A stretch of 64,000 bases of DNA. Source: Candidatus Melainabacteria bacterium (GTDB lineage: Bacteria; Cyanobacteriota; Vampirovibrionia; 2-02-FULL-35-15). The stretch's first letter is position 1, and the number at the start of each line of letters is the position of its first letter. Position numbers and translations under genes: made by a program. Shown piece by piece: positions 43,726 to 51,043 of this stretch. The stretch is taken from the NCBI GenBank assembly GCA_023250195.1, contig JAHFBF010000001.1, positions 406,661 through 470,660 on the forward strand. Reading direction: 5' to 3'. A model generated the notes under the pieces. The model made no database searches, was not told the origin of the DNA, and saw only the letters and a program-made list of their open reading frames with translations.

Positions 43726-44472
43726 TCAAATTAATATTCTGCTCTTCTTTAATACACTAACTAATTTCATAGCTTCTTTCTCAAAATTCTTATAATTACT
43801 CTTATCCACCTGGTAAGCATTTGCCAGGAAATATATAACCATATCAATTGATAACCCGGATTTTAAAAGTTCTATAAATGCAAAACTACTTGTTGAAAGC
43901 TCAAAAAATCTTACATTGAAATTCTTTGGATCCCGATAAATTAGAACATTTGTTATTTGTTTATATATCTTCCCTAAAGGTTGATTATTTTCAATCATTT
44001 CAACAATTTCAGGAATTGCATATTGAAAAGCACAAATCTCATGTACTGGATTCAAGCAAAGAGTCTTATTAGCTTTCTTAATTCCTTCTTTCTCATATAT
44101 TTTCACTTCAAGCCATTCATAACATGCAAGTTCACTTATAAAAGGATAGTTTTTTAAGATGTCTTTTCTCGTAAATAAATATTCGGGTAAATGCTCAACT
44201 ACTTTATTAAAAATTGGAGAGCCTGGCGGATATTTTTCCAAATAATCAGATAATAAATCGTCCCAAATTTTACTCAATAACTTATAAGTCACCGGATAAA
44301 TATTTACAGATAAATCGTGAAAAGAACCTCTGACTAATTCACGGTAAATTTTTATTCTTTCAAGGATTGACCTGGATAAACCTTTAACTTTATTTTTTTT
44401 ACTCCAGACAGAATCAAATAGAATCAAATCTTTAATTACTTTTTGAGTTTTTTTTAGACTATTTAAAGTCAC
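43726..44472 (-). CDS. DUF2063-family partner protein of the MNIO enzyme (HvfC/BufC-like)
   Basis: Start overlaps the MNIO stop (translational coupling); N-terminal half follows the DUF2063 pattern (IYRELVRGSFHDLSVNIYPVTYKLL...YPPGSPIF...LPEYLF...PFISELACYEWLE). Confidence 0.65.
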   Translation of the reverse strand: MTLNSLKKTQKVIKDLILFDSVWSKKNKVKGLSRSILERIKIYRELVRGSFHDLSVNIYPVTYKLLSKIWDDLLSDYLEKYPPGSPIFNKVVEHLPEYLFTRKDILKNYPFISELACYEWLEVKIYEKEGIKKANKTLCLNPVHEICAFQYAIPEIVEMIENNQPLGKIYKQITNVLIYRDPKNFNVRFFELSTSSFAFIELLKSGLSIDMVIYFLANAYQVDKSNYKNFEKEAMKLVSVLKKSRILI

Positions 44473-45347
44473 TAAGCCGCCTTCTTAAAAGATTTCATAA
44501 TAGTCTTGATTTTTTTTATTTCATTGAGCAGTTCTGAGAACTTTGGGAAATTAAAATCCCTTTCCAGCAATACTGCTTTTGGTGTGCATCTTTTTAAAAG
44601 TTCACCAAATAAATTGTAAACATCTCTGATAATTGGTTCACCATGCGTATCAATAATAATTTTCCCTCTGTTTAAATGCCCTGCTATATGTACCTGTACA
44701 GTACGTTCAATAGGAATACTATCCAAAAACCTTATCGGGTCATATTTATGATTTTTACTGTTTACATAAACATTATTTATATCTAGAAGTAACCCACAAT
44801 CTGCTTTTTCAAGGATTTGTGAAATGAAATCTGCTTCACTCATTTCATTATCTATAACCATATAATAAGAAGGATTTTCAATCAAAAAAGGAACCTGGAA
44901 AATATCCTGAGCTTTTTTTATTCTATTTACTAAATGTTTGACTGTAACTTTGTTATAAGGTAAAGGAATCAAGTCATGAATGTATGTTTTCTCAACATAG
45001 TTAAAACATAAATGATCACTAAACCATGAGGGGTCTATAATTTTAAAAAGCTTTTTTACGTTATTAATTAAAGCCGGATCAAACGGTTCTGTACCACCAA
45101 TTGAAAGATTTAATCCATGAGGAATAATTGGAAAATATTTTTTAGCATTTACAAGCCTTTCAAATATTTCTCCACCACGACAGATATAATTCTCAGGAGC
45201 AATTTCAAGCCAGTCAATTTGATTTTTATGTCTCAGAATAGGGCTATATAACTCTCTTCTTAGTCCAAGTCCAACCCCAAAATTTGGTAATTTATTTTTT
45301 TCTTTTTGAAATGTTTTTCCCATCACCGCCACATTGACCTTCACCAC
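44472..45347 (-). CDS. MNIO (multinuclear non-heme iron-dependent oxidative enzyme, DUF692), RiPP-modifying
   Basis: Ordered DUF692 hallmark motifs: FGVGLGLRRE, WLEIAPENY, HGLNLSIGG, FSDHLCF, FLIENPSYY, LLLDINNVYVNS, VQVHIAGH, IIDTHGEPI, AVLLERDFNFP. Start uncertain (GTG 45347 or ATG 45323). Confidence 0.85.
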   Translation of the reverse strand: MVKVNVAVMGKTFQKEKNKLPNFGVGLGLRRELYSPILRHKNQIDWLEIAPENYICRGGEIFERLVNAKKYFPIIPHGLNLSIGGTEPFDPALINNVKKLFKIIDPSWFSDHLCFNYVEKTYIHDLIPLPYNKVTVKHLVNRIKKAQDIFQVPFLIENPSYYMVIDNEMSEADFISQILEKADCGLLLDINNVYVNSKNHKYDPIRFLDSIPIERTVQVHIAGHLNRGKIIIDTHGEPIIRDVYNLFGELLKRCTPKAVLLERDFNFPKFSELLNEIKKIKTIMKSFKKAA

Positions 45348-45444
45348 ACTTAGCTTCTATGTAATGCTTCAATCGATCCTCACAAGATCGGATTTGCCGG
45401 ATAAACCAGACAAATCCTTTAAATACTAGAGCATTGTTTGTCAT
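45292..45444 (-). CDS. candidate RiPP precursor peptide (leader plus EAKCGEGQCGGDGK core)
   Basis: 50-codon ORF from ATG 45444 (alternative TTG 45474), 20 nt downstream of the CoA-transferase stop and overlapping the MNIO start; C-terminal core EAKCGEGQCG matches the repeat of 9841..10242; no Sec signal peptide. Confidence 0.5.
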   Translation of the reverse strand: MTNNALVFKGFVWFIRQIRSCEDRLKHYIEAKCGEGQCGGDGKNISKRKK

Positions 45445-45463
45445 ATCAGATAAAATATTAACA

Positions 45464-47260
45464 CTATTTTGCAATTACCTGCCCAGTTGGATCAATCTCT
45501 TTTCTTAATATTTTCAGTTCTTTTTGTGTAGGCTCTTTTGTTATTGGAGCAGCTTTGAGACCTGCTTTTACATTAATCTTGAAGGATGATCTGTTTTGCA
45601 CTTCTTCTAATGTAATCCCCGGATGCAAACTCTCAATTTGCATTTCTTTTGTTTCTTTATCAAATCCAATTACACAACAATCAGTTATTACTTTTAAAGG
45701 GCCTGCATTTGGTGGTAGTCCTGCTTTTTCTCTGCTCCCTGCTCCAGTTAAATATCCCGGCGTGGTTAGAAAATCAAGCTTCTCTACAAATTTATGCTTG
45801 TCCATCTTGATTATAATAATAGTATTCCAGCAAAGGGAAGCCAGATCATTTGCCCCGCCGCTGCCGGGAAGCCTGACTTTTGGTTTTTCATAATTAGTGC
45901 CAATCATAGTGGAATTTAGATTCCCATATTTATCTATCTGAGCACCACCTAAAAATGCATAATCAACCATTCCACGGGCACAGGTCTCCATAATCTCAGG
46001 CATGCTTGTTGCTACAAGGCTTTTATAGTGGGTCCTTGAATCACCTACAGACATTGGAAGTGATGGAAGTAAAGGTGCTATACCACCTGCTTCAAACATC
46101 ATTAAAAGATTTGGTGCCTGAGTTTTCTGTGCAAGCATAGCAGCTAACATTGGAAGCCCTGTTCCAACAACGACAGTCTTTCCATCTTCTAAAAATCTGC
46201 TTGCGGTACAGATCATGAACTCAGTCATGTTATATGACTGCGTATTGCGTATCGAGTATTGTGTATTGAGTTTAGGCTCTGGTTTGAGTTCCATCGTCTT
46301 TAATTCTTCCAATTTATTTTTTCCACCACAAATTTCCAGATAGCCATTCCAATCTTTAATATCATAAATGTATTTATTTAAAAATTTTTCGAAGGTCTGA
46401 AGCTCTTTTTCTGCTTCACTCCACTCTCTCAAATGCTCCAAATCAAAGTAATATTTCCCCGGCATGTTACATGGATAAGAACCATAAGGCACATGAACAA
46501 CAGCATCTACACAATAATAAGGAATAATAGTTCTTTCAGGCTCTGATCTTATTTGATCCGTAGAAATTATTTCTTCTGTAGTAATGATTATCTTTTTTGA
46601 CGCTCTAGCTAAATCACTATCAGAAACAGTAATTCCATCTATCTGGCAATTTCCAAACTCATCTGCTCGCGGAACATGAATTATTGCTACATCAGGGGAA
46701 CAGGCTGGAACAAGAGCATATATTTCTCCAGTAAATGGACATTTGTATTCAATTGCCCTGCTGTGTTTTATGGTTTCAGTTCCAAGCATAGATCGAACCG
46801 GCAAAAATGATAATCCCATCGCAGCTGCTTTAAATCGCCATGCAAGTGTTGCGTTTGTCCATTCAGTAACTTTTACTTTTCCTTCCTGAAAAACTCTTCT
46901 GTAATTTGGTGAAAGTCCTAAAAGCTCAATACCCACCACATACGCTGCATCTACTTTATCTATACAACCTCCTGCACAAAGAATCTGCCCATCATGCGTA
47001 GCAGTATGTCCTGCAAGTGCCAGGTGTTTTTTCTTTTGCCTGACAATTTCATGCAATGCAGCAGCCGGGATTCTATCCATTCCAAATCCGCCAATTCCAA
47101 GATAATCTCCATCCTGAACAAGTCTTTGAATCGCAGACTTTAGATCAGTGATTTTACTGATCATTTTTCTTGATTTTTTAAGGTTAATTTCTCGAAGCTG
47201 ATCGGGCGAGGTAAAACCATATAGTTCACGATCTTGTTTTGTATAAGTGGATATATTCAT
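45464..47260 (-). CDS. family I CoA-transferase, fused A and B subunits (glutaconate/3-oxoacid CoA-transferase-like)
   Basis: N-half LVQDGDYLGIGGFGMDRIP...TEWTNATLAWRFKAAAMGLSFLP (A subunit) and C-half with GSGGANDLAS and MMFEAGG (B subunit); linker contains a short tandem repeat. Confidence 0.75.
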   Translation of the reverse strand: MNISTYTKQDRELYGFTSPDQLREINLKKSRKMISKITDLKSAIQRLVQDGDYLGIGGFGMDRIPAAALHEIVRQKKKHLALAGHTATHDGQILCAGGCIDKVDAAYVVGIELLGLSPNYRRVFQEGKVKVTEWTNATLAWRFKAAAMGLSFLPVRSMLGTETIKHSRAIEYKCPFTGEIYALVPACSPDVAIIHVPRADEFGNCQIDGITVSDSDLARASKKIIITTEEIISTDQIRSEPERTIIPYYCVDAVVHVPYGSYPCNMPGKYYFDLEHLREWSEAEKELQTFEKFLNKYIYDIKDWNGYLEICGGKNKLEELKTMELKPEPKLNTQYSIRNTQSYNMTEFMICTASRFLEDGKTVVVGTGLPMLAAMLAQKTQAPNLLMMFEAGGIAPLLPSLPMSVGDSRTHYKSLVATSMPEIMETCARGMVDYAFLGGAQIDKYGNLNSTMIGTNYEKPKVRLPGSGGANDLASLCWNTIIIIKMDKHKFVEKLDFLTTPGYLTGAGSREKAGLPPNAGPLKVITDCCVIGFDKETKEMQIESLHPGITLEEVQNRSSFKINVKAGLKAAPITKEPTQKELKILRKEIDPTGQVIAK

Positions 47261-48191: not shown

Positions 48192-48920
48192 ATGTTCCTT
48201 CAAAAAGATGAATTAAGCAAATTTAACTTTATCTCTACAAAAGAATTTCTTTTAGCACTATTGCTAATGCTAATTACAACAATCTCCTGCTTTATCATTC
48301 TGCCCGTTTTTCTCAAACAGAATTCACTTGTCCAGAAAGATTTTTTTGACTCAAATTACTTTGGAATTATTGTTTTTTTTCTTTCTTCTATATTCACCTT
48401 ATACATTACTTATTTCTTCTGTTGTCAAAGAAAAAACAGACCTTTAAAAGAAGGATTGTTTCTATCTATGCCATCAAACAAAATTTTTCTTATCTCTATT
48501 TTAATTGGAATCCTTATGCCTTTGCTCTCACTGCCAGTAATTTTTAAATTTGCACCAGATGAATTTTACGCAATGGATCTGATTAATACAAAAGCTGGTC
48601 TTCTTTATCTTTTTACATGTGCACTATTCGCTCCGATATTTGAGGAAATCTTTTATCGCGGTTTTATCTTTCCTTTTTTTCAAAGCAAATTAAATAGTTT
48701 CTGGGCCATTATAATCACTGCTTTATTTTTTGGATTTTCACATTTTATGAATATTGGAAATGCTCATATTTTGCTTAGTTTGTTTATTTTTTATGGCTTT
48801 GTTTTAACCTTAATCAGATACTTTTCAAACTCTTTAATCCCTTCCATAATCACCCATTTCGTTCATAATCTGACACTTATGATCAGCTTTTTTATAATGT
48901 CAAAGACTGCTTTAGGTTAA
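48192..48920 (+). CDS. CPBP-family intramembrane metalloprotease (CAAX protease / Abi-like)
   Basis: Conserved motifs FAPIFEEIFYRG (EExxxR), FGFSHFMN (FxxxH) and ITHFVHNL (HxxxN) in a polytopic membrane protein. Confidence 0.8.
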   Translation: MFLQKDELSKFNFISTKEFLLALLLMLITTISCFIILPVFLKQNSLVQKDFFDSNYFGIIVFFLSSIFTLYITYFFCCQRKNRPLKEGLFLSMPSNKIFLISILIGILMPLLSLPVIFKFAPDEFYAMDLINTKAGLLYLFTCALFAPIFEEIFYRGFIFPFFQSKLNSFWAIIITALFFGFSHFMNIGNAHILLSLFIFYGFVLTLIRYFSNSLIPSIITHFVHNLTLMISFFIMSKTALG

Positions 48921-48997: not shown

Positions 48998-50482
48998 TTG
49001 ATACCAACGAGACCAAAATCTTCTGAAGAACCTCGTGCCTATAATAGGCTTGAGTTCCTTGCATTGAGGATAAAACAAGGCTTAAAATCTGAGGCATTAC
49101 CAATAGAACCCGATAAACGAAGAGGATTAGTTGATGATCTTGAGAACCAGTTAAGGTTAGGGAATTACAACTATGCCGTTACAGTTGCACTTCGAGAAAT
49201 GGGTTTAACCAGCAAAGAGCTTCAAATAATTGGCGATACCTATACTCCTCCAGGTCTTTATTCCAAAGTAGAATCATCTAGAATACTTGGTTTTAATGAA
49301 TATAGAGATCCTGATTTATTAAAAGGCAAACCACTTGGTGGATTTAATGTTCAATCCATAACCACTCCATCCGGTGAATGGGCAAGGAAACCTACTCTTA
49401 TTGATGGAAGGACTTGCTTTGATAACAACCTGGAAATAGTAAGGTCTGATCTTTTAATGAGAGAACTTATTCAGAGATATTTACCCAGAATCATTGTTCC
49501 TGATGCATTTGCCCATGTAAGTGATAACTACATTATAAAAGTCTGGTCAAAGATAGTAGAGTCAGAAGAAATTAAACCATTAAACGATTCAGAGGAAGCA
49601 AAAAGAAAAGCAGAGGAAGAAGCACAATCCTTATGTAAAAATTATATGGAAGATTTATCTTTAGCATCTTTTCTTTTTGGAGTAAGAGACTTAAGGAAAG
49701 TTAACATCCGTTGGAAAAATGAGCAACCAGTTTTAGTTGATTTTGGAATGCTTGTTACAGAACCTTACATTTATCCAGTTGCAAAAGCAAAAACACTGAT
49801 AGAATCCGGCGAAACACCTTTCGTAGATCCTGCAGGAGGTAACAGATTAGAACCTTATCTGGCTAGACTGGAACAATGGAAAAGAGAATCCTATAAACCA
49901 GCTGAAATTCGTTCTATGATGCATGATTTAGGTTTTGATACTGCTTCAATTGACAAGTATCTCAAGACTTTATCTAAAAATATTGATTCATCATATGAAA
50001 CTAATATGAAAACTTTTATTGCTTTAGCTAACGGTACATTACCGGAAGACTTTTTAAGTAAACTTGGCTGGAGAGGCAATAAAACCCCAGGAACAAATAT
50101 TACATTTCCATCCCCTATTCCTGAAGAACTAGCTGAAGATAAGGACTTAGTAGCTAAATTGTTAATTGATCAAAGGAAAGAAATTGATTTCCCTAAACAT
50201 GGTCAAATTTTACTTGAAGTAGGTTCAAGTAATTTTGTAATTTTAGAAAAATTGCCTGATAAAGCCGGCTTTAAGATCACCTTTATTAAAGGCAGTGGAA
50301 AAGAAGAACTGGAAGAAGTAATAATTAATAAAGATAATTTCGTAATTGGTAGCAAGACAGGAGACCTTCTAATTGAAAACCAGTCGGTAGCTAGAAAAGG
50401 ACATGTTCAAGTAGAATTTAAAAATAATAGAGTTTTATTAACGCCACTGGATATAGACTATACTACTAAAATTTGGTCCTAA
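48998..50482 (+). CDS. hypothetical protein with protein-kinase-like core signature and FHA-like C-terminal domain
   Basis: TTG start with AAGGA RBS; YIIKVWSK (VAIK-like), VRDLRKVNIRW (catalytic-loop-like), LVDFGM (DFG), VTEPYIYP; C-terminal FVIGSKTGDLLIENQSVARKGHVQVEF...LTPLD resembles an FHA domain. Assignment is by eye only. Confidence 0.35.
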   Translation: MIPTRPKSSEEPRAYNRLEFLALRIKQGLKSEALPIEPDKRRGLVDDLENQLRLGNYNYAVTVALREMGLTSKELQIIGDTYTPPGLYSKVESSRILGFNEYRDPDLLKGKPLGGFNVQSITTPSGEWARKPTLIDGRTCFDNNLEIVRSDLLMRELIQRYLPRIIVPDAFAHVSDNYIIKVWSKIVESEEIKPLNDSEEAKRKAEEEAQSLCKNYMEDLSLASFLFGVRDLRKVNIRWKNEQPVLVDFGMLVTEPYIYPVAKAKTLIESGETPFVDPAGGNRLEPYLARLEQWKRESYKPAEIRSMMHDLGFDTASIDKYLKTLSKNIDSSYETNMKTFIALANGTLPEDFLSKLGWRGNKTPGTNITFPSPIPEELAEDKDLVAKLLIDQRKEIDFPKHGQILLEVGSSNFVILEKLPDKAGFKITFIKGSGKEELEEVIINKDNFVIGSKTGDLLIENQSVARKGHVQVEFKNNRVLLTPLDIDYTTKIWS

Positions 50483-50617
50483 TATTTTAAAATAAAGCGC
50501 CTTCCTTTTAATTTGTTAACTAATTCAAAGCTTTACAATTAATTTAATTGACAGACATCCAACATTAATTCTAAACTTACCTGGTATCTATAGATTTAAA
50601 TTAGAAGGATAAAATCA

Positions 50618-51043
50618 ATGTCTATCTCAGATCTAACAATTTCAGCAAAAATTCCTACCGGAATAAAAAGTCCACCTGGAAGTGTTAAAGAACTACTTCT
50701 TCCTCCAAAAATAAGAGAAAATTCAGTAATCCTGGAAATTAAACCTGATGTAAATTTAACTGGAAATGCATTACACCGTAATAAAAGAATCCTTAAAGCT
50801 GAGATTTTAGAAAAAGCAGGAAAGGCTGATGTTGTGATTTTACAGATTGGTAATGTCGGTATTGATAATGCAGGATATAAATTTTTAATTGATCTCGATA
50901 GAGAGCTAAAGTCAGAAGGCAAAATCTTAATTCTTTTTACTGAAGATGAAGTCTCATTAAAAGGCATGAGTGATTTGCCATTGCCTATTGTAGTTTCTAA
51001 TGTAAAAGATTTAGAAAAAGTAACTTCTTCTTTTGCAGCATAG
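50618..51043 (+). CDS. STAS-domain protein (anti-sigma-factor-antagonist-like)
   Basis: VVILQIGNVGIDNAGYKFLIDLDRELKSEGKILILF matches the STAS fold pattern including a Ser/Ala at the phosphorylation-site position; preferred over the antisense ORF 50596..50967. Confidence 0.5.
   Translation: MSISDLTISAKIPTGIKSPPGSVKELLLPPKIRENSVILEIKPDVNLTGNALHRNKRILKAEILEKAGKADVVILQIGNVGIDNAGYKFLIDLDRELKSEGKILILFTEDEVSLKGMSDLPLPIVVSNVKDLEKVTSSFAA

Follow-up and report, generated by a model that had tools for sequence, protein, structure and literature searches.

A 64,000-nucleotide stretch of a Candidatus Melainabacteria genome (contig JAHFBF010000001.1 of assembly GCA_023250195.1, here referred to as the window; G+C ~35%) raises the question of what a divergent kinase-like protein does when its gene lies directly upstream of a gene for a single-domain STAS protein, and whether the two could form a partner-switching module, as an original prediction made from the sequence had proposed. 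The first gene, here referred to as KinFHA (48998-50482, plus strand), is an open reading frame (ORF) of 494 amino acids with a TTG start and an AAGGA ribosome-binding-site-like motif ~10 nt upstream. The second (50618-51043, plus strand) encodes a protein of 141 amino acids, with an ATG start and GAAGGA upstream. Both are real genes; identical copies of both proteins were called on several public metagenome contigs, and the KinFHA protein was called on four public contigs. The explanation that best accounts for the whole of the evidence, and to which we assign a probability of roughly 0.55, is a lineage-restricted, atypical kinase-STAS regulatory module.

The KinFHA protein begins with an N-terminal helical region (aa 1 to ~83, 48998-49246, plus strand) that varies among family members and in which the alignment shows a recurring 'G-x-Y-x-x-A' helix, followed by a predicted protein-kinase-like catalytic core (aa ~84-346, 49247-50035, plus strand). 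The motifs W-A-R-K131, V-R-D231-L-R-K-V-N236 and V-D248-F-G stand in kinase order, confirming the VAIK-like, RD-loop-like and DFG motifs pointed out earlier, and their catalytic columns are invariant or nearly invariant across the family. In an alignment of 13 sequences (25% mean identity), M1, K131, N236, D248 and P274 were invariant and D231 nearly so. Adding three domains from two very large proteins described below (two of P0009, one of P0013) brought the alignment to 16 sequences (family alignments had 25-29% identity); N236, D248 and P274 were invariant here as well, and K131 (Arg in P0013) and D231 were each retained in 15 of 16. An acidic residue was also found at D151 in 15 of the 16 sequences when the alignment was read by eye, and D151 was invariant in a four-sequence alignment; lying 20 residues past K131, it fits the acidic residue of helix alphaC at ~19 residues after the lysine. 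The corresponding codons on the plus strand are 49388-49390 (K131), 49448-49450 (D151), 49688-49690 (D231), 49703-49705 (N236), 49739-49747 (D248-F-G) and 49817-49819 (P274). Spacings in KinFHA are 100 residues from Lys to Asp, 5 from Asp to Asn and 12 from Asn to Asp, compared with 94, 5 and 13 in PKA. The co-occurrence of the three motifs is more than chance, and KinFHA keeps the full catalytic set of beta3 Lys, alphaC acidic residue, catalytic Asp, Mg-binding Asn and DFG Asp. Given this complete set, the protein most likely transfers phosphate from ATP.

The assignment of a kinase-like domain also survived profile comparison, by the convergence of several weak signals. For these comparisons the reference sequences of PKA, CDK2, PknB, APH(3')-IIIa and SpoIIAA were first confirmed as full-length Pfam matches. 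When the core was aligned with hhalign, the segment from catalytic loop to DFG came out in register with a eukaryotic-type protein kinase set (PKA/CDK2/PknB) at P 0.0056, compared with 0.35 for the reversed control, and with APH(3')-IIIa at P 0.016, compared with 0.33 reversed; an unrelated-family control gave P 0.13. In this register D231, N236 and D248 fall on D166, N171 and D184 of PKA and on D190, N195 and D208 of APH(3')-IIIa, and an extended alignment puts K131 on PKA K72 at low confidence. The same catalytic-loop positions of the Pfam APH profile were matched independently by three family members, the best with E 9e-4 and 19.5 bits (cut-off 23.2). When a core-only profile was compared with the PDB, ~50 of the best 60 matches were kinases of the protein-kinase-like (PKL) superfamily, including PI4K-beta (E 0.068), PI4K-alpha, PI3K-alpha, PDK1, CDK12/13 and AAK1, and part of these alignments reached from the Lys region through DFG.

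Several observations weigh against a kinase fold. No single match to a kinase-family profile was significant or above a curated threshold; the best match of the window KinFHA, to APH (E 0.19), is sub-threshold and covers the catalytic-loop part of the model, and the hhalign probabilities against kinases are below 10%. None of the 13 members matched Pkinase (PF00069) or PK_Tyr_Ser-Thr with E up to 10. A conserved GxGxxG loop before K131 was absent from the 16-sequence alignment, in which some members have a variable 'LGG'; several atypical PKL families likewise have no Gly-rich loop. The single-sequence AlphaFold2 model of the 494-amino-acid protein was unusable, with a mean confidence score (pLDDT) of 38 and values above 60 solely in the N-terminal helical region. 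The lack of a significant single match, of a Gly-rich loop and of a Pkinase match, together with the failed model, is why we treat the fold as probable and not as established. The same points could be taken to mean that there is no kinase fold at all, the motifs having arisen by coincidence in an alpha/beta protein that is specific to the lineage and has an unrelated function: no curated threshold was passed, hhalign probabilities were low and structure prediction failed. However, no polar residues of the family are better conserved than those at the four catalytic positions, which stand at kinase spacing, the reversed and unrelated-family controls were 20-60 times worse, and kinases dominate the top PDB matches. 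Coincidence is on these grounds highly improbable, and we consider a kinase fold of the KinFHA core to be quite probable from the sequence comparisons.

The C-terminal ~95 residues of KinFHA (aa ~399-494, 50192-50482, plus strand) are homologous to FHA domains, bearing out the FHA-like segment recognized in the original prediction. Alignment of this tail with a canonical FHA domain by hhalign gave a probability of 93.4% (E 2.6e-7, reversed control 0.56), and PDB matches included the solved FHA domains 3gqs (E 0.0025), YscD and Rv0020c. The window protein alone has no Pfam FHA match; among the 13 members, four matched Pfam FHA (PF00498), one of them (P0010) over the gathering score (23.6 vs 20.7 bits). 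The domain is degenerate: in the window protein, G451-S452 replaces the G-R pair and A465 the Ser, H469 is kept and the NG pair is absent. Within the family, P0004 and the L001 protein alone have kept the phosphothreonine-binding Arg. Because the Arg, Ser and Asn that bind phosphothreonine have been lost, the FHA-like domain probably serves as a phospho-independent docking or interaction module.

The downstream protein has the STAS fold (PF01740), as had been proposed, and the assignment is confirmed both by the fold and by homologues. The profile match came by way of the homologues: the window protein alone has no Pfam STAS match, the L013 partner scored 25.2 bits (cut-off 22.6), and the partners in L005 and L007 matched with E 2-3e-3. 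In hhalign, the STAS partner aligned with SpoIIAA at P 0.003 (reversed 0.21). Neither KinFHA nor the STAS protein of the window reaches a Pfam or NCBIfam threshold alone, and weak ABC-ATPase and DUF2436 matches of the STAS protein were dismissed as spurious similarity of a loop motif. The protein contains an N-terminal extension (aa 1 to ~30) that is disordered and rich in Ser/Thr, a V-N46-L-T48 motif and a G81-I-D83-N84-A85-G86 loop; the Ser/Thr-rich disordered extension is present in all partners and V-N-L-T in most.

Canonical anti-sigma factor antagonists are phosphorylated at the Ser position of this loop (PMC8256260). The original prediction placed a Ser/Ala there, but in alignments to TM1442 (D-S-A-G) and SpoIIAA (D-S58-S-G) the phospho-Ser position is taken by Asn84 (codon 50867-50869), with Ala85 next to it. 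Asn occupies this position in five of six partners, the window protein included, and Ser only in L005 (D-S-S-G). This finding bears directly on classic partner switching, in which the kinase would phosphorylate the loop Ser of the STAS protein and thereby switch its partners and control a sigma factor. The conserved STAS fold and D-x-x-G loop, the retention of D-S-S-G in the L005 partner, and a kinase-like gene directly upstream of the STAS gene on the same strand are all consistent with such a switch. Against it stand the Asn at the acceptor position, a kinase that is not of the GHKL type, and the absence of any sigma factor, GHKL anti-sigma kinase or PP2C phosphatase among the six flanking genes; none was seen at the other loci. 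Partner switching through phosphorylation of the antagonist Ser could not be upheld on this evidence, and we regard the classic mechanism as distinctly unlikely.

The pairing itself, in contrast to the proposed mechanism, held up across loci. A STAS gene lies downstream of KinFHA at six distinct loci (the window, L001, L005/L006, L007, L013 and L023). L013 and L023 contain the pair without shared flanking genes, and the contigs with P0008 have a wholly different neighborhood, yet a 123-amino-acid gene lies downstream of KinFHA. Two observations count against a strict module. L009, L010 and L011 have no recognizable downstream STAS gene and keep intact catalytic residues, showing that the partnership is not obligate, and the gaps of 90-135 bp between KinFHA and STAS genes, together with a promoter-like site, permit separate transcription. 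This tentative site (TTGACA-18-TAAACT, 50548-50577, plus strand) lies inside the 135-bp spacer preceding the STAS gene of the window; promoter and terminator scans of the region gave numbers of sites not above shuffled expectation. A small ORF after P0012 in L009 was tried as a STAS homologue and rejected (hhalign P 0.44). In the genome represented by L011 (6496-7148) and L012, the acyl-CoA dehydrogenase gene adjacent to the slot is split into fragments of 146 and 54 amino acids, and the STAS gene is also absent, which suggests local decay.

Six flanking genes were scanned in the window, encoding a CoA-transferase, flavin reductase, CPBP protease, acyl-CoA dehydrogenase, ChsH2-like protein and thiolase; all are metabolic or membrane-protease genes. 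Directly upstream of KinFHA is the gene for the Rce1-like/CPBP intramembrane protease (48192-48920, plus strand; Pfam Rce1-like 1.7e-18). Its inclusion in the cassette beside KinFHA and STAS was considered and rejected: it is kept in L018-L020 where KinFHA is missing, and it is absent beside KinFHA in L010, L023 and the P0008 contigs. Since it persists where the pair is missing and is lacking from non-syntenic KinFHA loci, we assign it to the genomic backbone and not to the module. The window contains no KinFHA paralogues, canonical kinases or further STAS genes, and an Rfam search of the locus returned nothing credible.

How widely the family occurs was addressed by several searches. Only 16 distant relatives emerged when 1.84 billion representatives were searched exhaustively with HMMER. 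Word-indexed searches for homologues, run with the KinFHA protein and with the profile of the family, gave back the query alone, and a scan of a genome collection with the KinFHA protein returned nothing. A genome scan anchored on the CoA-transferase recovered seven loci, recorded as Candidatus Melainabacteria (five), Candidatus Caenarcanales (one) and 'uncultured Gammaproteobacteria' (one), at least three of them, judging from the isolate names, from groundwater metagenome-assembled genomes; a metagenome scan added one further locus, L023. No relatives were found in viral, phage and plasmid collections and PADLOC gave no matches. The family is absent from the curated libraries searched, and no description of it was found in the literature searched. 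One of the 16 relatives, P0006 (2934 aa, with 13 'stretches'), was rejected as spurious, being a low-complexity tandem-repeat protein.

Some relatives of the kinase-like domain reside in giant proteins. P0009 (L021 3368-7960, 1530 aa) contains a DnaJ domain, two kinase-like copies and a RamC_N domain of the lanthipeptide-synthetase, phospho-Ser/Thr-lyase type, and its gene adjoins a HicA/HicB pair. P0013 (L022 821-8602, 2593 aa) has one kinase-like copy, with Arg for the beta3 Lys, together with a weak SseF/SseG-type match, a hydrophobic segment and H-E-I-A-H near residue 2208; it looks effector-like. The most divergent stand-alone member, P0015 (L010 5001-6693), adjoins a gene for a 111-amino-acid resolvase and has genes for a PIF1-type helicase, Amidase_3 and AAA_13 nearby, a context that suggests a mobile or island-like region.

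The domain combinations of P0009 and P0013 hint at protein or peptide substrates and effector-like roles, and they are relevant to another reading of the APH and PI4K matches. KinFHA might be a small-molecule or lipid kinase of the APH/choline-kinase or PI3/4-kinase type, or carry out AMPylation-type chemistry, with the STAS protein as a ligand-binding or carrier accessory. However, those matches are limited to the catalytic loop that is common to the whole superfamily, the fused FHA fold and the RamC_N link of P0009 favor a protein or peptide as substrate, and across non-syntenic contexts KinFHA has no consistent linkage to any metabolic gene. A small-molecule or lipid substrate appears rather unlikely on this basis.

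Sequence divergence sets the pair apart from its surroundings. Compared with the window, the flanking CoA-transferase, acyl-CoA dehydrogenase and flavin reductase are 80-89% identical and Rce1 69-81%, versus 27-32% for KinFHA (tblastn) and ~38-63% for the STAS protein. Over all pairwise comparisons, identities of KinFHA (23-36%) and Rce1 (69-80%) were uncorrelated (Spearman 0.23, p 0.42). The KinFHA-STAS pair diverges approximately ten-fold faster than its neighbors with the catalytic residues kept, a combination that suggests selection for changing specificity. Similarity of backbone and cassette also disagree: in L001 the acyl-CoA dehydrogenase is 80% identical to that of the window and the cassette 55% (KinFHA) and 63%, while in L007 the acyl-CoA dehydrogenase is 89% and KinFHA 27% identical. 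This mismatch suggests exchange of alleles between genomes.

The position of the cassette is variable in content as well. In L015 (5947-7876) the slot is empty: the acyl-CoA dehydrogenase and flavin reductase genes directly adjoin each other, and both the Rce1-like gene and the cassette are missing; in L020 (7373-8353) it holds two unrelated ORFs of 164 and 160 amino acids, and in L019 (2930-8468) genes of sugar-nucleotide and glycosyltransferase type. L002 (1-6588) is 100% identical to the window rightwards from ~48,780 for more than 4.7 kb, through KinFHA, STAS, acyl-CoA dehydrogenase and beyond, and its left part, containing the CoA-transferase, flavin reductase and most of Rce1, is ~70-90% identical (backbone ~85% at the DNA level). 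The switch, near window position 48,700-48,780, could be a recombination junction or a strain-level assembly chimera.

Such a pattern may point to a conflict module of the toxin-antitoxin, anti-phage or effector-immunity kind, in which KinFHA, by analogy with the kinase-fold toxin HipA, would supply a toxic or effector activity and the non-phosphorylatable STAS protein would be a tightly binding neutralizer. Extreme divergence with catalytic residues kept, presence/absence polymorphism, the variable slot and the disagreement between cassette and backbone (L001 and L007) are in line with this possibility, as are the identical cassette on another backbone in L002 and the related domains in effector-like proteins of giant size, of which P0009 is encoded beside HicAB and P0013 has the weak SseF/SseG match. 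An Asn at the phosphosite would also suit a dead-end pseudosubstrate. However, neither PADLOC nor the phage, plasmid and viral collections gave any match, the L002 junction may be a chimera of assembly, and the gaps of 90-135 bp are unlike those of tightly coupled toxin-antitoxin pairs. At three loci the kinase-like gene is apparently active although a STAS gene is missing, a situation incompatible with an obligate antitoxin, and P0009 has no small downstream gene. We regard a conflict module as possible but doubtful. Its most specific form, a new intragenomic conflict or defense module of the Melainabacteria in which a hypervariable kinase-fold effector is checked by an Asn-for-Ser STAS pseudosubstrate and alleles are swapped via the conserved flanks, is speculative and improbable; if this form were true, it would provide the first STAS-based neutralizer of a protein-kinase-like toxin.

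We favor the regulatory kinase-STAS module, which could operate as follows. KinFHA would be an ATP-dependent phosphotransferase of the PKL superfamily, most likely acting on a protein or peptide, with its FHA-fold tail providing phospho-independent docking. The cognate single-domain STAS protein, in which Asn replaces the canonical phospho-acceptor Ser, may form a stable complex with the kinase, contacting its active-site face or its FHA-like domain, and act as a regulatory subunit or pseudosubstrate. Alternatively, the STAS protein might be phosphorylated at a non-canonical site, in the N-terminal extension or at the conserved Thr48, in the manner of PknD and Rv0516c. The pair lies in a variable genomic slot, and its rapid divergence would reflect selection for changing specificity.

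No long-standing question is answered by the pair. Should its fold and activity be borne out, KinFHA represents an uncatalogued family of the PKL superfamily, almost confined to relatives of the cyanobacteria that do not photosynthesize and to a small number of giant effector-like proteins. The regulatory model, if true, would also make STAS proteins dedicated partners of kinase-fold proteins outside the GHKL partner-switch paradigm, with the canonical phosphoserine unusable. Because it diverges approximately ten-fold faster than its neighbors with catalytic residues kept, the pair may be an example, from a phylum that has received little study, of evolution driven by an arms race or by shifts in specificity.

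Elsewhere in the window (43726-45474, minus strand), an HvfC_N-like gene is paired with a gene of the MbnB/TglH/ChrH type (DUF692), both named from orthologues with 79-83% identity. A 60-amino-acid ORF (45292-45474, ending ...EAKCGEGQCGGDGK...) lies just upstream of this pair and resembles the Cys-motif precursor peptides modified by DUF692 enzymes. The group may be a locus for a ribosomally synthesized and post-translationally modified peptide.

Among known systems, SpoIIAB/SpoIIAA and RsbW/RsbV likewise consist of a kinase gene adjoining a single-domain STAS gene, and the STAS fold and D-x-x-G loop are kept in the Melainabacteria pair. The kinase here, however, is protein-kinase-like and not GHKL, the phospho-Ser of the STAS protein is Asn, and there is no linked sigma factor or PP2C. 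APH/choline kinases and PI3/PI4-kinases have in common with KinFHA the D-x4-N and [ILV]-D-[FWT]-G signature and the lack of a canonical Gly-rich loop, but the likeness is limited to ~50-65 residues around the catalytic loop and no model passed. HipA is a further atypical PKL family with a probable resemblance to the KinFHA signature. In its FHA fold devoid of the phosphothreonine triad, KinFHA resembles the cytoplasmic domain of YscD, and YscD and a CT664-type FHA domain were among the best PDB sequence matches; YscD-type proteins belong to secretion machines, whereas no secretion genes are linked to KinFHA.

In Mycobacterium tuberculosis, the non-GHKL Ser/Thr kinase PknD phosphorylates the STAS protein Rv0516c at a non-consensus site in its N-terminal extension (PMC1847690), and the STAS partners described here share a Ser/Thr-rich N-terminal extension. 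PknD differs in being a canonical Hanks receptor kinase, whereas KinFHA has no Pkinase match and forms a gene pair with its STAS partner. Fusions of FHA domains with Hanks kinases in cyanobacteria contain a canonical kinase, are listed as 'FHA + Kinase', and have intact GR, SxxH and NG motifs (PMC1262709). The FHA-like domain of KinFHA differs from these in being C-terminal and devoid of the Arg, Ser and Asn, but the same combination occurs there on one polypeptide, in the sister lineage of the Melainabacteria.

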